A DNA stretch of 64,000 bases, from contig CM000151.3 of NCBI GenBank assembly GCA_000004695.1, positions 5,504,001-5,568,000 of the forward strand, written 5' to 3'. The notes under the pieces were generated by a model, which saw nothing but the letters and a program-made list of their open reading frames with translations, was not told the DNA's origin and made no database searches. Each line of letters starts with the position of its first letter. The stretch's first letter is position 1. Of this stretch, positions 5,981 to 34,492 are shown one piece after another. The position numbers were made by a program, and so were the translations under genes. This DNA is from Dictyostelium discoideum (lineage: Eukaryota).

Positions 5981-7084
5981 ATGAGTGATAAATCATTATC
6001 AAATAATTATTATACAACAGGTTTAAATTATAATTTACAATTTTATTTAGATATACATAGAATTGGTTTATTTTTTAAACAACTAGATTTTATTCAATCA
6101 TTATTAGATGATGAAAATTTTAAATTTGGTGATTTTCCAAATGGAATTGTTAAAAACCTTAAAATTAAAAATATTGGTACTTGTGATTCAATTGAATGTT
6201 GTCAACAACAACAACAACAAAATGATAATCATTTAAAACCATTATTAAATAATAGATGTTTTCATTATAAAGATTTAACAATTCAAAAAGCTTCAAAAGT
6301 AATGAACTCTCAACAATTTTTTAAATTTATTAAATTTTGTAATTATCATTCAATATTTTCATTTTTATTAATCTACAACGATGATCTTTTAGAATTTGAA
6401 ACAATTAATCAATTATTAAATCAATCATCAATAATTAATCATTTATTAATTAATCATTATGAACCAAATCAAGATATTGATTATCAAGAAGAATTTGAAA
6501 ATCAAGATGAAATTAAAAATCAAGATGAAATTGAAAATCAAGACGAAATTGAAAATCAAGACGAAATTGAAAGTCAAGACGAAATTGAAAATCAAGACGA
6601 AATTGAAAGTCAAGATGAAATTAATGATAAAGATAAAGTAGAGCCGAGTGAAAAAGATGATAATTCAGATGTTTCAGAATTTTGGTTAGATTTAATTGAT
6701 TATTGTGTATATGATTGTGAAAAGATTGAATTTTTATTTATCAAACATCCAAATTTATTATCCTTTATTCCAATTGATAAAATTTTAGATAGAGTTTTAC
6801 AACCAGGTACAAATTACAATTATAATATAGTTTTAACAGATTTAATAGTAAATCATATTAATAATAATAATAATAATCAAGATAACCCAATCAATTGTAA
6901 AGACATTTTACCATTCTTTAAAATTACAAACCGAATAATTGATGATGCAATTGTTGCAAAAAAAATTTATTATTTAAAATACATTTACGAAAATGGTTTT
7001 ATTGAAGAAAATGAACTTTTGCAATATTTAAAAGATAAACTTGCAAATAATTCAGATTATAAAAATCTAAATTGGTTTAATTAA
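5981..7084 (+). CDS. Hypothetical 367-aa protein with 8 tandem acidic octad repeats (DEIENQ/DEIESQ).
   Basis: ORF with an AAAATG-like start context. A 24-nt period repeat lies at about 6490..6640. It could alternatively be a downstream exon of the 2678..5743 gene, but that ORF ends at a TAA stop. Confidence 0.5.
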   Translation: MSDKSLSNNYYTTGLNYNLQFYLDIHRIGLFFKQLDFIQSLLDDENFKFGDFPNGIVKNLKIKNIGTCDSIECCQQQQQQNDNHLKPLLNNRCFHYKDLTIQKASKVMNSQQFFKFIKFCNYHSIFSFLLIYNDDLLEFETINQLLNQSSIINHLLINHYEPNQDIDYQEEFENQDEIKNQDEIENQDEIENQDEIESQDEIENQDEIESQDEINDKDKVEPSEKDDNSDVSEFWLDLIDYCVYDCEKIEFLFIKHPNLLSFIPIDKILDRVLQPGTNYNYNIVLTDLIVNHINNNNNNQDNPINCKDILPFFKITNRIIDDAIVAKKIYYLKYIYENGFIEENELLQYLKDKLANNSDYKNLNWFN

Positions 7085-7323
7085 TTATAAAAATAAAATA
7101 TTTAAAATTCAAATAAAATAATTAGTGTTCAAAAATTATCTATATCTATGGGTCTTAGATAATTATCTATTCATATCTTTTTTTTTAATAATCTATTTGT
7201 TATAAGTAATTGTATGTTTACATAAAATGGTGTGACAATGGTGTTGAACCCAAAAAAATTGAGATTTATAATAACCCCATGCAACAAATGAGAATGAGTA
7301 CCTCAAAGAGAACCTGATTTATT

Positions 7324-7373
<50 letters not shown>

Positions 7374-7440
7374 GTATTCACAAAGAATCCAATAATTTTT
7401 TTTTTTTTATTTTTTAAATATAAATTTAATCTAATATAAT

Positions 7441-7560
7441 TATTTCTTTTCTTTTTCTTTTTCTTTTTCTTTTTCTTTTTCTTTTTCTTTTTCTTTTTCT
7501 TTTTCTTTCCTTTTTCTTTTACTTTTTCTTTCTTTTTATCTTTCTCTTTTTCTTTCTTTT
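7441..7560. repeat. (CTTTTT)n hexanucleotide microsatellite, about 17 units, becoming degenerate.
   Basis: Seen directly in the sequence. Confidence 0.85.
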
Positions 7561-9344
7561 TCTCTTTTTCTTTTTCTTGGATTTTATTTGATTTTGTTTT
7601 TTTAACTTTAATTGTTGTTGAAGTTTCAGTATTTGTTTTTGAAGTTGTTTTTAAAGGTGGTGGTGGTGCTGCTGCTGGTTGTAATCTAACTATTAACGTT
7701 GAAAAGTTTAGAATATCAGTTGAGCTTTTTTCTTTAAAAATGGATCATCAGCTAAAAAATCATCAATTGAATCTGTAGTTCCAATAAATTTATCTGAATA
7801 TGTTGTTAGTTCTTTTAATTGTTAAATATTGTTGATAAAATTGTTAAAATCATTTGCTGTAATTATTTAAGTTTATCCAATTGAACTTTATTAATGTTTA
7901 CTTTTGCACCTTTGCTTTCGGATACAGTTTTTTTATAATTTTATATCCAACTAGTGGTTTCAAATCTTTATTTCTTAAAAAGGTTGTAATTTTATTTTTC
8001 ATTGGATAATCTATAACATCAAAATCCAATTGTAGTGTGAATGTTGTTTTCATTGTTTATCAAAATAATTACACTATACTTTGAGATATAAGTTATTTCA
8101 AGTGCTTCTTTATCTGCATCTGAATCGGAATCGGAATCATATGCATCACAGTCATCATAAGGATTTTCATGATAACATCTTCTTCTCTTTGATTTGAAAT
8201 AATCTCTTTTTTTGTTTCTTCACTTTCAATTTGAAAATATTGATCAAAATTATAATCACCATTAAATAAATGTTTTTCAAAATCAAAAGTTAGGGAGTCG
8301 CAATCATTCCATCTCTTACCAGGTCATTTTAATTAATTTTGCTTCAATTTCGTTTTCTTTAATACCAAATATATATTTAGTTTAATTTAAAAATGTTTTA
8401 AATTTATCTGAATTTGTATTGAGCCATGATGACTCATTACCAAAACTAATTAATTCTGATGGAATATCAAATACTTTTCTTTAAAATTATCTTATTTTAT
8501 TTGAACTTCTTTTTTTTTTTCTTCTATATTTAACTCTATCTTCAGGTTTTAATAATTGTGGATATTTACTAATAATTCTTTAGGTTTTTCCTAATTTTTA
8601 AATATTAACGTACCATAATCACCAACAACTTCTAATTCTAATTTATCCTTTTCAACTTTTTCTAATTCCATTTTATCTTTATTTTCATTTTCTTCTTCTT
8701 TATTTATTTCTTTATTTTTATCTTTTATATAATTTTTTAATTTTTCAATTGAATCATTATTATTATTATAGGTTACTGTGTCAGATTATAAATCTATCTA
8801 TGCGCCATGACATTAAGAATTCTTTAATATTTATTTATACCTCGATAATAATAACAATAAAAAACAAAAAAAAAATTTTAAAATTTTCCAAAAAAGCAAA
8901 CAAATAAAAAAACAATGTTTTTATTTATAAAAATATCTTTTTTTTTCTTTTTTTTTTATTTTTCACTTAACAATACATTATAAATAGTATTAAAACTATT
9001 AATAATTATGAAATGCTTTATTATTCACCCAATAAAATAGATATTTTTAAATTTCATATGAAAAATAACAAAAAAAATAAAAAAAATTGGGGAAGGGGGA
9101 TATTTTTAGTAGAAATTTCATATTTTATTAATTGATATCTATTGAATATTTATTTAATAAACTATTAACTAAACTTAATGATTTTTCTACATCATTTGAA
9201 TTGAAATTAATTTCTTTAAATTCTTCCAAAAATTTATTATGATTTTGTTTAAGTGTCTAAATAACAAAAATAATTAAAAAATAAAAAAAAAAAATTAGTA
9301 ACCAATTTAAAATATTACAATTTCTATTATTATTGTTATTATCA

Positions 9345-26050: not shown

Positions 26051-26780
26051 ATGAATAGTTTTATAAAAAATATTATAGTTTTAATAATAATAATTTTTTT
26101 TTTTTTAAATGAAATTAAAAGTAGTGAAATATGTAAGAATCAATTATTAAAATATTTTGAAAATAATAATAATAATAATAATTTTTTATCATTAGAATTA
26201 TCAATTACTATAATTAAAAATAATGGACAAATAATATATGGAAATGGAGAATTACATAAAGAGGGTGAAAATAAATTAGTAAATAATGATGGTTTAATTG
26301 GATATCAAAATGATAAAATTCCATGGTTATCAAATGATGATCCAGAATCAGATCAACCATTTTCAAATTTACGTACTTTTAGAGTTTATTATGGTGAATT
26401 TTATATTCATAAAGATGGTTATTTAATTATAGGTTCATGTAAAAATAAAATTGAATTTACAATTTTATGTAATGATACAATTTTTTCAGGTTTATTATTT
26501 GATGATTTATATACTATTCAAATTAAAACTAAATCAAATAATAATAATATTAATAGTAATAATAATAATAATAATTATACAAATAATAGTAATATTAATA
26601 ATAATAATAATAATAATATTAATATTAATAATAATACAAATACAAATAATATTAATAGTAATAATATTGAAATTAAAAGTATAATAACAAATAGTTGGAG
26701 TGAAGGTAGTGGCAGTAATATTACAAAATATTCATTAGTTAAAACTGTAATTTTAAATAATTCTTCAAATATTATAAATA

Positions 26781-26819
<39 letters not shown>

Positions 26820-27034
26820 TTACTTCATTAACATTTGGAAGTGAAAAATTAATGTTGAGAGATGATCTTAGTTTTTGGGGTGTAAATAAAGTAATTTCAC
26901 CAAATTTAAATAATAATTTTACAACAATTTTCTCATTACCATCTTATTCATTACCAATTTCACCAGGCAAAACTTATGAATTTGGTTTCATTATTAAAGG
27001 TTCAACAACAATTCCAATTTTCAAAATATTTTAA
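26051..27034 (+). CDS. Hypothetical secreted Asn-rich protein, 327 aa.
   Basis: The N-terminus MNSFIKNIIVLIIIIFFFLNEIKSSE looks like a signal peptide. There are several N-glycosylation sequons and long poly-N stretches. I recognise no homology. Confidence 0.5.
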
Positions 27035-28013: not shown

Positions 28014-29708
28014 AACTTATTTATTTATTTATTTATTTATTTATTAAGATAAGTTAAAAAATAAAATAAATTCTTTATCTTCATCATCATCTTCATCATC
28101 AGAAGGTTTACAAATTATTAGTATTAAAGGTACAGGTGAATTTTTAACAGTTGAATATCAACCATCATGTTCACCAAATTGTAATGGTAAATATTTCCCA
28201 ATGGATGTTACAGTTAAAGCATTGAATCAAGTAATTAATAATACAATTACTACAAGTAATGTTGCACCAAGTTGTACAGTTACAGATGGTGTACCAGTTT
28301 GTAAAGTTTCAGCAAATTCATTTGTTTATCAACCAAGTGAAGTTTCAATAACAGATACAGTTTCAAATCAAGTATTAACATGGGATCATCCAATTGTTTC
28401 ATTACCAATTGTATTACCACAAACTATTAAACAATATTACGGAATTCCAAACCATTATCAAGTTAGTCACCCAAATGCAACTCAATGTGTTGTTGAATTT
28501 GAACAACAATATTATTCACCAACTGATTTAGAACAATTTTTCAATAGTATGGGTTTACCAACCAATGTAAGTGTAAATGTAATTGGTTACAATGACGAAA
28601 CCAATCCAGGTGTTGAAGCATCATTAGATATTCAATATTTAATGGGTGTTGCTCCAAATGCACAAACTACATTTTGGTCAATCTATGCAAATACTTCCGC
28701 TGAAATTGATGATATCCTTCAATGGGCAGTTGCAATTTCAACCCATCCAAATCCACCATTAGTTAACTCCTTATCTTATGGTATGACTGAAGGTAATGTT
28801 GACACATATTTAGGTAATGGTTATATGGCAAGATCTGAAGTTGAATTTGCTAAATTAGCTGCTAGAGGTTTAACAGTTGTAATTGCAAGTGGTGATAGTG
28901 GTGCTTATGATTTAGGTGGTCCACCAATGGGTGCTAATGGTTGTGAAAATGTAAATCCAATTTTTATAATCTCTCTCTCTCTCTTGTATATACATATATT
29001 AATAATTTTTTATTTTTATTTTTTATTTTTATTTTTTAGGCAAGAGGTGATTGGCCATCAAATTCAGAATATGTTAGTGCAGTTGGTTCAATTTATTTTA
29101 CACCATATTCAGCACCAATTTGTTATGATTCAGTTTCAAGTGGTGGTGTAAATTGTCAATCACTTCCAATTGGTGAAGTTGGTGTTTCAATTGATTATGG
29201 TACAATGTGGACATCAGGTGGTGGTTTCTCAAATTTCACAGAGACTGCTTACTATCAAAAAGATTTCGTAAATGAATATTTAAATAAATTAAAAGAATTG
29301 GATGTTTCACCACCATCAAATCTTTTCAATTCAAATGGTAGAGCATATCCAGATTTTTCAACAGTTGGTAAGAATTTATATGTTATCAATGGTGGTGAAT
29401 GGTTATCAGTTGATGGTACATCTGCTTCTGCACCAATCTTTGCTGGTATGATTACAATTCTCAATGATATTAGATTAAATAAAGGTTTACCACAATTAGG
29501 TTTCCTTAATCCATTATTCTATCAAATCGCAAGAACAAATCCAGAAGCTTTCTATGATGTCGTCGTTGGTAATAATCGTTGTGGTCTCTCTGATTCTACT
29601 CCAGTTTGTTGTGATTTCGGTTATACTGCTACAACTGGTTTCGATACTGTTTCAGGTTTAGGTAGACCAGATATGTCTGTTTTAATGGAAATTATTGATC
29701 AATATTAA
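27426..29708 (+). CDS. Tripeptidyl-peptidase I / sedolisin (S53 family), about 700 aa. Three exons: 27426..27957, 28049..28950, 29040..29708.
   Basis: There is a signal peptide plus an S53 pro-domain (MNKINLFIILTILINCYFG...LSVDEITSIISPSKESL...). The catalytic domain reads VIASGDSGAYDLGG and the active-site Ser is in GTSASAPIFAGMITILND...LGFLNPLFYQ, as in human TPP1 (GTSASTPVFGG...LGFLNPRLYQ). Donors are GTAAGT at 27958 and GTAAAT at 28951. Acceptors are AG at 28047-8 and 29038-9. Phases are consistent, and the total length of 2103 nt is divisible by 3. Confidence 0.8.
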
Positions 29709-29869: not shown

Positions 29870-32035
29870 TTAAATATTTGGTGACATAATTAAAGAACCA
29901 ATTGAAATTGCAGGATTAATTTTATGAGCATATTTCCAAATTTTCTTTTGTAATAATTCAGGACCACCAAATTCAACATCCAAGATTGGATATTGTCTAA
30001 CATAAGGAGATGGATACTGAACACCTGCTTCAATTGCATTACCAAGATTTTCGTAATATTTAATATCTTTTTTAGTGGTGGCACCATCTTGATTGAAAAT
30101 GATAGCTTTTGCTTCTTCATCCCAAGCTTTCCAATGAACGTATGCATGAGAGAAAACAGCCTGATAAATGATAAATATTGAACAATCTCTAAGATCTTGA
30201 ATATTTTTAATTTCATTTGCACTTTTATCAGCATTTAAACAATGTTGAACTAAATCATCTGAAACCAGTTCAATTTCATTCCATACTTTTAGAGTATCTT
30301 CTTTATTCTCTAAAAACCATTCATCAACATATTCAGTGATTGCGTCCCAAATGGCTTGACTGGAGGTATCATAAACATGACCTTTAATTTTATCATTAAT
30401 TGGTGTTGGTCTCCATTTATAAGTTGTTTGACTGAATCTCTTTTGTAGCATTTGAACTTGACCTTCATATGTGAAAGCAGCAGCTTGAGTGACAACACCA
30501 TCAAGCATCGGTCTTACCACTAACCAATTATTAAATATTACACCATCGAAATGTGGATAAAGTAATTTCTTTATTGGATTATTTATAATATTTCTATAAA
30601 ATGCCATATTAAACATTTCCACAACAAAATGTACACCAACATGACCCCAATTAATATTATAATTAAATTCAACCATCATATATTTAACTTTTAAATCATT
30701 CCATTCTTTTGAATCATCAGCTTGTTGAACTATCCATCCATCATCACCATCACCATCACCATCACCATAATCATTCATTCTATATGCAATTGATTTTATA
30801 ATTAATTCATTTTCATTATCTTCATCATTATCATTATGATTTTCATTTTCCTTAAGTTTAAATCTACAACATGTTTCTTTTGGAAACCAAACATCTTGTT
30901 TTAATTCATATCCTGATAAATCCAATCTTAATTCATAGTTCCATTCACCATAGTTATTCTCTTTACAACTTTCAACTCTAACGAAATCATTGTATGGTCT
31001 ATTTGAGCCATTCAATCTTCTAGAGGTGAAAAGTTGGTCAGATACAATACTATTGTAAATTCCATTCTCGGCTGATCTAGTTTGAATATTTGGTGGTAAC
31101 ATCTCCATTGAATTCTTTTCACCACGTAGTAACCAATAGACTATAACAAATGCTACTACCATTTCATTAAATTCATCATGATGTACAAAACTGTCACTTG
31201 GCATTGCAAATTTTGGTATCTTTAAATCTGGATCAAATACTGGTAGCCTATCCCAATATCTTAATCCAAACTTTGCTACTGGTTCAATCGTTACTTCAAA
31301 TTCAATATTACCAATAACTTTTTCGCTTTGTGTCATCATTTCAACAATTGGTTCTAAAAATTTAATATTTTTTTTTTCCATTGAATTACCAATAATATCT
31401 TTACCAATTTTAACACTAATAATTGATTCTGTTGAATTAAATAAAATTTTATTTTCTTTTATAATTTTTAAATTAATTATAATTCCATTATTTCCAATTT
31501 TTTCCATTAAACTATATTATTAATTATTTTTTTAAAAAAAAAAAAAAAAAAAAAATTAATTAAGAGAAATAATTTTAAAATAAAAAAATAAAAATAAAAA
31601 CTTACAATTCCATTTTTGGATCATCAATCCAACTTGAATTAAATGATTTAAATCTGGATTCTGAAATTTGAGGTGTTGTATTTGATCCTTCTACTTCAAC
31701 TTCAATATGATAGTTTAAAGGATCATTAAATTTTGTTCTAATAACTTTTTTTTTTTTTTTTTTTTTTTTTATTTTATTAGTAAATTTTTTAATTAATATA
31801 ATAAAATAAAAATAAAAATAAAAATTAAAGAATAAAATAAATAAAAAATAATAAAAAAATTACTTTTTACAGTTGCAATCATTGGTATTAAATTTAATTG
31901 ATTTGATTTTTTATCTAAATATAAATCTAATATTTCTTTTCTTGTAGCTTTTCTAGCTTGTTTATCTGAATAATTAATTAATGATAATAAAAAATCTCTT
32001 GATACTTTATTAATTTTATTATTAATAAACTCCAT
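29870..32035 (-). CDS. Lipoxygenase-like protein, putative, about 650 aa. Three exons: 32035..31864, 31744..31606, 31511..29870.
   Basis: The catalytic-domain motifs resemble lipoxygenases. WGHVGVHFVVEMFNMAF resembles the His-rich helix, KKLLYPHFDGVIFNNWLVVRPMLDGVV resembles the conserved KLLHPHFRxTMxINALAR, and AVFSHAYVHWKAWDEEA resembles HAAVNFGQY. The C-terminus ends in ...SPNI*; LOX use the C-terminal Ile carboxylate as an iron ligand. The two short 5' exons (about 104 aa) plus the start of exon 3 could form a PLAT-like beta-sandwich (NYHIEVEVEGS, IGNIEFEVTIE). Splice phases 1 and 2 are consistent with GTAATT and GTAAGT donors. Confidence 0.45.
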
Positions 32036-32188
32036 TTTTATTTCTTTTTATTATTTTTTTTTTTATTATTTTTTTTTAATGTGAATATATTAATGTTTGA
32101 TGGTGAGGTGAGATTTAATTGATTTTTTTTTTTTTTTTGGTTTTTTTTTTTTTTAATTTCATTTAATTTTATTTTATTTTTATTATTT

Positions 32189-32220
<32 letters not shown>

Positions 32221-32596
32221 TTTTTTTTGTAGTTTCCTTTTTTTTTTTTTTTTTTTTTATTTATTTTCCTTTTTTTATTTCTTTATTCCTTAGTATTTTT
32301 CTATTAAACTATGGTAGTGGCATAGTATATTTATATCTATAATTTCTCATAAAACAATTATTAATAAAAAAAAATAAAAAAATAAAAACTTAATTGTCAA
32401 CCTATTTACTTTTCTTTATTGATTTTAAAGTGGTTACCCCCATTTTTAAAAAATTTTTTTTTTTATTTTTTTATTTATTTTTTTATTTATTTTTTTTTTA
32501 ATTATCATAAAAAATGTTTAAAATAATTATTTATATTTTCATCATTGGGCGCCATCATATTATTATTTATTAAAAAAAAAAAAAAAAATAAATGCT

Positions 32597-32786
32597 TTGA
32601 AAATGAATAATAATAATAATAATAAAAAATTAAATAAAGAAAATTTAAATGAAATTGAAAATTGGAATGAAATAGAGTTAACAGATTATAAGAAACAAGG
32701 TTTAGATGAAGGTACATCAAGTAATATTTATTTATTTGAAAGTAATGGTAATGTTGTTAATGGTAGTATTGAAGATTCACCAAAGC

Positions 32787-32857
<71 letters not shown>

Positions 32858-34492
32858 AATATAATATCATCAGATGAGGAAATTGAAGATAAACCATTTC
32901 AAGATAGAGATAGTAATATTGGTGATGGTAGTGATATCGATAGTAGTGGTGATTCAATCGATATAGAGAATACTGATTATTCAATATTGGTACCATTCGA
33001 AGATGAAGAAAACAACAATGGAAGTAAAAGTAAATTTTCAATTAAAAAATTAAAATCATTTTTAGGACCTGCATTATTTATATCGGTGGGATATATGGAT
33101 CCAGGTAATTGGGCAACAGATTTAGAAGGTGGGTCAAGATTTGGGTATCAATTAATGTGGGTATTATTATTTTCAAATATTATGGCACTATTTTTACAAA
33201 CTTTGGTGATAAAATTAGCATTGGTGACAAAGAATGATTTAGCTCAACAATGTAGAAAAGAGTATAGTAAAACCGTGAATATATTCCTATGGTTAATATT
33301 AGAGTTGGCAATAATTTCAACAGATTTAGCAGAGGTTATTGGTACAGCAATTGGTTTGAATATTCTATTTGGCTTACCGTTGATTGCAGGCGTTGCTATC
33401 ACTTCATTGGATACTCTACTGTTTTTAGCCATTCAAAGATGGGGTATTAGGAAATTGGAATTGTTAATTCTATTACTTTTATCAATGATAACAATGTGTT
33501 TTGTGATAGAACTTTTCCTTAGCAAACCAATTGCGTCCGAGGTTTTCTCTGGTTTCGTGCCAAGGTTAAATAGTGATAGTGTTATGGTTGCAACTGGCAT
33601 CGTTGGTGCTACCACTATGCCCCATAATTTGTTTTTACATGGTAGTGTGGTGAAATCAAGAAAGATTCCAAACGATCGTAGAAAATCAGTGATCAAACAA
33701 GCTTACCGTTATAACGTTATCGATACGGTTTTGGCTTTGAATTGTGCATTCTTTGTTAATATCGCAATATTAATGTTGGCTGCCTCTGTCTTTTGGAAAT
33801 CAAATATCCAAGTAACCGAATTGTCAGAGGCCTATAGATTATTAACTAAATTAATGGATGGGAAATTAGCCGCAGTTTTATTTGGGTTGGGTTTGTTCTT
33901 GGCTGGTCAATCCTCAACTATCACCGGTACAATGGCGGGCCAAATAGTTATGGAAGGTTTCATAAAATTAAGAATTAAACCTTGGTTAAGAAGATTCATA
34001 ACTCGACTTTTGGCTATAATCCCCGCCGCTATTGTTATCATTGTTTTAGGTGACAAAGGTACCTATACCCTATTAATTATCTCACAAGTGCTTTTATCAA
34101 TTGGTTTACCTTTTGCTGTGGTCCCCTTAATCATTTTCACAAGTTCTTACGAAATAATGGGTGAATTTAAAAATAGGTTGTCAATTATTATTATCAATTC
34201 AATAATTGCTCTATTCATTATTGGTTTAAATTTAGCAACTATTTTTCAATTAATTAATGATTTCCTTCATAATGATTCAATAATTTCAAAATGTTTAACA
34301 ATTATCTTTTTAATCCCTTTATCAATTGCTTTATGTTGTTTATTATTATGGTTAATAATTTCTAAAATTAATTTCTTTACAAATTTATTATCAAAAATTT
34401 TTAATAATAATAATAATAATAATAATAAAAATATTATAAATAATAATAATAATTATTCTGGTAATACAATTAATAATCAAACTATACAATAA
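32597..34492 (+). CDS. nramp2: Nramp-family divalent metal (Fe2+/Mn2+) transporter, 631 aa, with a poly-Q N-terminal extension.
   Basis: The Nramp signature is GPALFISVGYMDPGNWATDLEGGSRFGYQLMWVLLFSNIMALFLQ, containing the DPGN motif. It is followed by multiple TM helices and the consensus transport motif region ATGIVGATTMPHNLFLHGS. The size and the Q-rich N-terminus fit the longer Nramp paralog. The symbol assignment is tentative. Confidence 0.85.

Follow-up and report, generated by a model that had tools for sequence, protein, structure and literature searches.

The two helix-borne histidines of the first metal-ligand pair, spaced H-x4-H and set in a pi-helical bulge beside the metal, are treated as a hallmark of the lipoxygenases (LOXs). 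In soybean LOX-1 these His ligands reportedly occupy positions i and i+5 of a pi-helical segment, an observation ascribed to the work of Boyington et al. in 1993 and Minor et al. in 1996. Here we compare with the known LOXs the product of a Dictyostelium discoideum gene, DDB_G0275577, which lies in a stretch of 64,000 nucleotides (the window: contig CM000151.3, positions 5,504,001 to 5,568,000). This product is a genuine lipoxygenase-family protein of 650 amino acids in which all five metal-ligand positions are filled, and in which the first His pair, to judge from the alignments, has been shortened to H-x3-H by a genuine deletion of one residue that is characteristic of a small clade of amoebal, environmental and bacterial sequences.

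The nearest canonical LOXs are cyanobacterial catalase-related/LOX fusions named "linoleate/linolenate 9R-LOX" (P0019-P0026, P0019 being that of Desmonostoc vinosum), which align to the C-terminus with E-values of 1e-62 to 1e-52 and which, in a neighbour-joining tree (467 trimmed columns, 130 sequences, 100 bootstraps), fall within the parent clade of the H-x3-H sequences. The fusions and the DDB_G0275577 product have in common the motifs EQYAMAxYRN, NPIxxLLxPHF and a C-terminal M-S-x-N-I, but the fusions differ in having an H-x4-H first pair (HLGRTH) and a fourth ligand that is mostly Asn, and their N-terminal partners are of other kinds (e.g. a weak catalase-like match), with no C2-like sandwich. 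Which of the cyanobacterial-type LOXs is the exact sister of the H-x3-H clade is weakly supported, at 10-30 of 100 bootstraps. The 9R-lipoxygenase of Cyanothece sp. PCC 8801 (5EK8) is also canonical at both pairs, with H-x4-H (HYAKAH) and H-x3-N (HTWVN), unlike the Dictyostelium protein, and when superposed on the predicted structure of the latter it covers the catalytic domain only (459 of 650 residues), whereas C2 domains are the match for the N-terminal domain. More distant are the mammalian LOXs of the ALOX15 type, which have a PLAT domain at the N-terminus; rabbit 15-LOX (1LOX) has an H-x4-H first pair and 14% identity to the DDB_G0275577 product.

An earlier note on this DNA, made from the sequence alone, had proposed a three-exon gene for a protein of about 650 amino acids, to be read either as a genuine but atypical mini-lipoxygenase or as a PLAT-containing family merely mimicking LOX motifs. 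The gene model and its coordinates were exactly right: the spliced product is identical over its full length to D. discoideum AX4 XP_643408.1 (EAL69539.1; UniRef100_Q86H96, UniProt Q86H96), which is named "hypothetical protein" by NCBI and "Lipoxygenase domain-containing protein" by UniRef. Both introns are short and A/T-rich, and exon 3 is an open reading frame (ORF) of 545 amino acids in DNA of 22% G+C, a length far above chance expectation. Orthologues 88-57% identical to this product, with the start and C-terminus in common, are present in D. citrinum, D. firmibasis, D. purpureum, Heterostelium album, Acytostelium subglobosum and one more EukProt species.

Membership of the lipoxygenase family, the first of the two readings, is borne out by several lines of comparison. 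Searched against PDB sequences with phmmer, the product matched 5EK8 at E=4.3e-17, followed by coral 11R-LOX, Enhygromyxa LOX and human 15-LOX-2 at about 1e-4, in a series of LOX chains with E-values of 1e-4 to 1e-3. A profile of the dictyostelid sequences retrieved 220 proteins at E<=1e-3 from 1.84 billion representatives, and the named proteins among these 220 were a cyanobacterial "linolenate 9R-lipoxygenase" and a "lipoxygenase family protein". With hhalign, the dictyostelid alignment matched 20 canonical LOXs at 100% probability and E=3.4e-56 over 409 columns that begin at residue 195 and reach the C-terminal Ile. The AlphaFold2 model m46087c962863, built on an alignment of 133 sequences, has a mean predicted local distance difference test (pLDDT) of 90.1 and a predicted template modelling (pTM) score of 0.90, and replaced an earlier model from 8 sequences whose pLDDT was 52 and whose catalytic domain was unusable. 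The predicted fold is the LOX helical bundle, and each of the 50 best Foldseek matches of this model in the PDB is a lipoxygenase. Together, the phmmer result, the dictyostelid profile search, hhalign and the predicted fold lead us to reject a family with mere mimics of LOX motifs. Word-indexed searches, whether with the single protein, the dictyostelid profile or a clade profile, returned only 7 dictyostelid clusters or the query alone, and yielded no taxonomy for the environmental sequences of the H-x3-H clade.

The ligand positions were counted in an alignment of 133 LOX-family sequences, in which all five canonical positions (two His; His and Asn/His; the C-terminal carboxylate) are filled in the DDB_G0275577 product. 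Positions 394 and 398 are each His in 132 of the 133 sequences and position 559 is His in every one, while position 563, His in the Dictyostelium protein, is Asn in 70 and His in 61. The C-terminal residue, here I650, is Ile in 97 sequences, Thr in 11, Ser in 9 and Val in 7. H394, H398, H559, H563 and I650 are invariant across 8 dictyostelid sequences at identities down to 57%. The motifs that had been picked out from the letters (GHVGVH, LLYPHFDGVIFNNWLVVRPMLDG, SHAYVHW and a C-terminal ...SPNI) are all present, and the HxxxH spacing that had been read for the first His pair is a real one-residue deletion: both MAFFT and hhalign place a single gap between H394 and H398 relative to canonical H-x4-H, with gap-free flanks. 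What had been taken for a variant H-x3-N in SHAYVHW is not a peculiarity of this protein, since His occupies position 563 in 61 of the 133 sequences, and HAYVH is thus the ordinary His alternative. Across the alignment, the spacing of the first pair is H-x4-H in 114 sequences and H-x3-H in 18.

The shortened pair is also found in the representatives P0013-P0018, whose identity to the DDB_G0275577 product is 23-32% and which carry in addition H-x-W-x-H-[WF] as the second motif and P-N-[TSI] at the C-terminus. The second and C-terminal motifs are present in a further fragment without the first-His region (P0027), and the second motif in the fragments P0047 and P0146. Clade members are the top non-dictyostelid matches of the dictyostelid profile, with E-values from 1e-97 to 1e-41. 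In the neighbour-joining tree the 12 full-length H-x3-H sequences group together in 99/100 bootstraps, the dictyostelids with P0013-P0015 in 100/100 and P0016 with P0017 in 92/100. On this tree the clade carrying the deletion is monophyletic, and the deletion is old and has been retained. Its members are dictyostelids, environmental eukaryote-like transcripts and proteins of two high-GC bacterial contigs. P0013-P0015 and P0018 come from JGI contigs of ~1-2 kb, one of which (L003) resembles a eukaryotic mRNA with untranslated regions, an AATAAA signal and 52% G+C, while the contigs that carry P0016 and P0017 look bacterial, with 75% and 66% G+C. Despite their low identity, these relatives, bacteria included, keep four or five of the five ligand positions. 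Members of the clade are rare, none appearing in two pattern scans of 185,579 GTDB species genomes and one locus, L003, in a scan of JGI metagenomes.

At the N-terminus of the protein, both AlphaFold models place with high confidence a 38-residue helix and then a beta-sandwich of ~130 residues, and in the predicted structure this sandwich has the eight-stranded fold of C2 domains and not the beta-barrel of an N-terminal PLAT domain (PF01477). Its likeness to C2 domains such as myoferlin C2A (6EEL), plant synaptotagmin-1 C2A (7ATP) and the C2 domain of cPLA2 (1BCI) rests on predicted structure; the DDB_G0275577 product differs from them in having no significant sequence match and, by reading of the sequence, no obvious cluster of Ca2+-binding aspartates. 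The product has no match to Pfam C2 (PF00168), and a profile of the N-terminal domain compared with PDB sequences matched no C2 chain and no PLAT chain. In two members of the clade, matches to Pfam C2 fall below the cut-off of 22 bits (P0013 at 17.4 bits and P0014 at 12.5 bits). The architecture predicted by the model is best described as helix, C2-like sandwich and LOX domain. Neither label offered by the earlier note fits it: a helix and a beta-sandwich precede the catalytic domain, as they would not in a mini-lipoxygenase, and the PLAT domain of the alternative label is lacking both as a fold and as a match to PF01477 at E<=10.

On the combined evidence of the alignments and the structural model, we consider it probable, at roughly 65%, that DDB_G0275577 encodes a functional but divergent LOX-family metalloenzyme. 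Such a protein would oxygenate lipids at a non-haem metal (Fe, possibly Mn) and would be composed of an N-terminal helix, a C2-like sandwich and a LOX helical domain, and a five-ligand Fe or Mn site is plausible. The deletion probably exchanges a pi-helical i/i+5 His pair for an alpha-helical i/i+4 pair, with both histidines still facing the metal. By analogy with other LOXs, the reaction would consist of hydrogen abstraction from an unsaturated lipid and insertion of O2, and membrane targeting would fall to the C2-like domain. A working metal site, and not a relic of one, is suggested by the strict conservation of all ligands in amoebae and bacteria alike, down to 23-32% identity with the DDB_G0275577 product.

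Several points weigh against this reading. In the profile search that the earlier note had put forward as a check of the LOX assignment, a Pfam scan of the DDB_G0275577 product found no family at E<=10, PF00305 and PF01477 included; taken literally this is the outcome that the note had named as refuting, but it is overturned by the other profile methods described above. A scan of NCBIfam found no family either. The same Pfam threshold yields no family for P0005, P0016 and P0017, and, as weak support for the LOX reading, one member of the clade, P0013, does exceed the gathering score of PF00305 (27.4 against 23.6 bits). PROSITE-style LOX signatures do not match the product. The HMMER pairwise alignment to 5EK8 is shifted in register and sets G393, not H394, opposite the first ligand, so that the role of H394 as a ligand is inferred from its conservation and from the gap placement of MAFFT and hhalign. 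The surroundings of the site also differ. The clade has its own conserved replacements (E385, N387, N431, Q455, W564, S605 and P648) where the other sequences are for the most part hydrophobic or acidic, and given these replacements the pocket of the H-x3-H clade may be remodelled. A further difficulty concerns the substrate. The site of LOX attack is a bis-allylic CH2, which non-methylene-interrupted dienes do not have. D. discoideum contains monoenes and the non-methylene-interrupted dienes 5,9-16:2 and 5,11-18:2, and Physarum makes linoleate (reviewed in PMC11900508); because the dienes of D. discoideum are of this kind, an endogenous 1Z,4Z-pentadiene substrate is not evident. Ingested or foreign lipids, minor polyunsaturated fatty acids (PUFAs), or non-classical chemistry at a remodelled site are possibilities. 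Finally, the genes beside the bacterial members of the clade provide weak context. P0016 and P0017 adjoin a gene for a ~710-residue fusion of a P450 with two cNMP-binding domains (L001 184..2322 and L002 2..2128), and in L002 the stop codon of the P450 fusion overlaps the start codon of the LOX. This arrangement is weakly compatible with a two-step, oxylipin-type lipid-oxidation pathway, but the P450 is by comparison with PDB sequences a generic one (CYP3A/CYP51/CYP120-like), its identification as an oxylipin-specific CYP74 is rejected, and the bacterial loci are two only. The fusion of a P450 to cNMP-binding domains is an unusual architecture in itself.

The alternative that best survives, although we regard it as unlikely, is that the LOX fold has been retained for non-classical chemistry, to which the shortened His pair and a remodelled pocket would be adaptations, either as a hydroperoxide isomerase or epoxyalcohol synthase, in the manner of eLOX3, which is an isomerase, or as an enzyme of substrates without a bis-allylic methylene such as the 5,9- and 5,11-dienes, polyketides or prey lipids. 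The want of obvious classical substrates in D. discoideum, the clade-specific polar replacements at the conserved hydrophobic positions E385, N387, N431, Q455 and W564 and the second oxygenase, a P450, beside the bacterial relatives would all accord with such a change, but every canonical ligand has been kept, as have the core motifs (RN, LLxPH and C-terminal N-I), and nothing points directly to another reaction. Many bacteria with ordinary LOXs also have no PUFAs and act on foreign lipids.

Less probable again is a catalytically dead LOX fold, that is, a lipid-binding or scaffolding protein in which the deletion has disabled the metal site. Retention of canonical H-x4-H by 114 of the 133 sequences means that its loss could be disruptive, and curated family hidden Markov models do not recognise the product. 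However, the invariance of the five ligands among dictyostelids, and the keeping of four or five of them by the distant relatives, would be unexpected after loss of the metal site, and on geometric grounds an alpha-helical i/i+4 pair should face the same side as a pi-helical i/i+5 pair. An origin of H-x3-H in faulty sequencing, gene modelling or alignment, as the one-residue slip of the HMMER alignment to 5EK8 might suggest, is effectively refuted, as the motif lies deep within exon 3 and distant from splice sites, the product equals the RefSeq model, HVGVH recurs in seven further dictyostelid proteins as well as in independent environmental sequences, and the single gap is placed by both MAFFT and hhalign.

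The reading of DDB_G0275577 as a functional but divergent LOX can also be set against H-x3-H spacing elsewhere in the family. We considered whether the shortening was unique to the dictyostelid-containing clade and rejected this, as a second small lineage shows it independently: P0069 (HLGIH), P0142 (HLGMH) and P0138 (HHLTTH) have a shortened first His pair and are nested within a group of canonical spacing. The deletion therefore arose at least 2 times, and the existence of an independent second lineage indicates that the LOX fold tolerates it. P0069, P0142 and P0138 have in common TWGHxTLH and a C-terminal G-x-I-I. A possible case among characterised enzymes is MF-LOX1 of Myxococcus fulvus, an active arachidonate 12S-LOX with an iron loading of only 5.6%, for which the first iron-ligand cluster is given as His376 and His372 (PMC6612559). 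Read literally, His372/His376 is H-x3-H in a working enzyme, although this numbering appears once and may be a misprint. The second cluster of MF-LOX1, His-Ala-Ala-Val-Asn, is like that of animal and plant LOXs, and MF-LOX1 does not belong to the dictyostelid H-x3-H clade.

The features of the gene and of its surroundings in the window are collected in Table 1. Head-to-head with the LOX-like gene, across an A/T-rich spacer of ~560 bp, lies a gene for an Nramp-type metal (Fe/Mn) transporter (PF01566, E=1e-133). The ORF listed for it begins at TTG, the true ATG being slightly further in, and the core of the protein is flanked by a run of >20 glutamines and by Asn-rich tails, low-complexity insertions of a kind typical of Dictyostelium. 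The divergent Nramp/LOX pair is also found in D. purpureum (L004, 3657..5036 minus and 6001..8058 plus) and not in Heterostelium album (L005). This pairing could be conserved synteny of group 4 or could mean that the metal transporter and the metalloenzyme are regulated together. Directly downstream of the D. purpureum LOX orthologue, on the same strand, is a BBE / FAD_binding_4 oxidase gene (L004, 8280..9734). The corresponding neighbour in D. discoideum is different, being a convergent gene of two adjacent ORFs, with 160 bp between their end and the stop codon of the LOX gene. The second of these ORFs contains a GTSASAP motif, read as the active-site region of a serine peptidase (sedolisin/S53-like), and Pfam found no family in either ORF fragment. 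Further away, an ORF encodes a CBM49 carbohydrate-binding domain (E=8e-6).

Table 1. Features of DDB_G0275577, its product and neighbouring genes, in positions of the window
Feature	Position	Strand	Remarks
Gene DDB_G0275577	32035..29870	minus	3 exons; coding sequence 1953 nt, product 650 aa
Exon 1	31864..32035	minus	ATG 32035..32033; codons 1-57 and first base of codon 58; GT donor at 31863
Intron 1	31745..31863	minus	119 nt, GTAATT...AAAAAG; GT...AG boundaries
Exon 2	31606..31744	minus	139 nt; kept in orthologues
Intron 2	31512..31605	minus	94 nt, GTAAGT...ATATAG; GT...AG boundaries
Exon 3	29870..31511	minus	Entire catalytic domain; TAA stop 29872..29870 included
Predicted long N-terminal alpha-helix (aa 2-39)	31919..32032	minus	AlphaFold2 model m46087c962863, H2-39
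Predicted C2-like beta-sandwich (aa ~50-181)	31280..31888	minus	Across both introns
Lipoxygenase catalytic domain (aa ~190-650)	29873..31255	minus	
First metal-ligand pair, H394-V-G-V-H398	30629..30643	minus	H-x3-H, one-residue deletion
Second ligand pair, H559-A-Y-V-H563	30134..30148	minus	His / His-for-Asn
C-terminal Ile650 codon	29873..29875	minus	Presumed carboxylate ligand; alignment of 133 sequences
Spacer between LOX-like and Nramp genes	32036..32596		
Nramp-type transporter gene	32597..34492	plus	
Convergent gene	28201..29708	plus	Two adjacent ORFs
ORF with CBM49 domain	26051..27034	plus	

DDB_G0275577 has been catalogued and automatically named, and we found no dedicated study of it. 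A literature search for the gene returned no paper, and nor did one combining "lipoxygenase" and "dictyostelids"; a survey of protozoan LOXs (Kurakin 2020) was outside the coverage of these searches. A "Dictyostelium discoideum" LOX has been placed in a tree without comment (PMC10177866). Within the same coverage, to which Kurakin 2020 is again external, no earlier description was found of H-x3-H as the character of a clade, of the C2-like N-terminal domain or of the failure of PF00305 on this branch.

The occurrence of a LOX homologue in a eukaryote is unsurprising, but an altered ligand helix in a host without an evident classical substrate constitutes a pair of specific and testable oddities. 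Having lost one residue while keeping every ligand, the H-x3-H clade provides a natural experiment on whether the pi-helical bulge is needed for metal binding and for C-H activation. This branch of the LOXs is also a blind spot of PF00305 and of NCBIfam. It is a more speculative idea that the clade forms a distinct subfamily of C2-LOXs with an alpha-helical i/i+4 His pair and a remodelled pocket, which would oxygenate lipids beyond the reach of classical LOXs (e.g. the 5,9- and 5,11-dienes) or use another metal or reaction, in which case Dictyostelium would have an unrecognised oxylipin-type pathway of signalling or defence. Dictyostelium serves as a model organism in the study of chemotaxis and of multicellular development, and a conserved C2-like LOX in this organism would point to an unexplored pathway of lipid oxidation.

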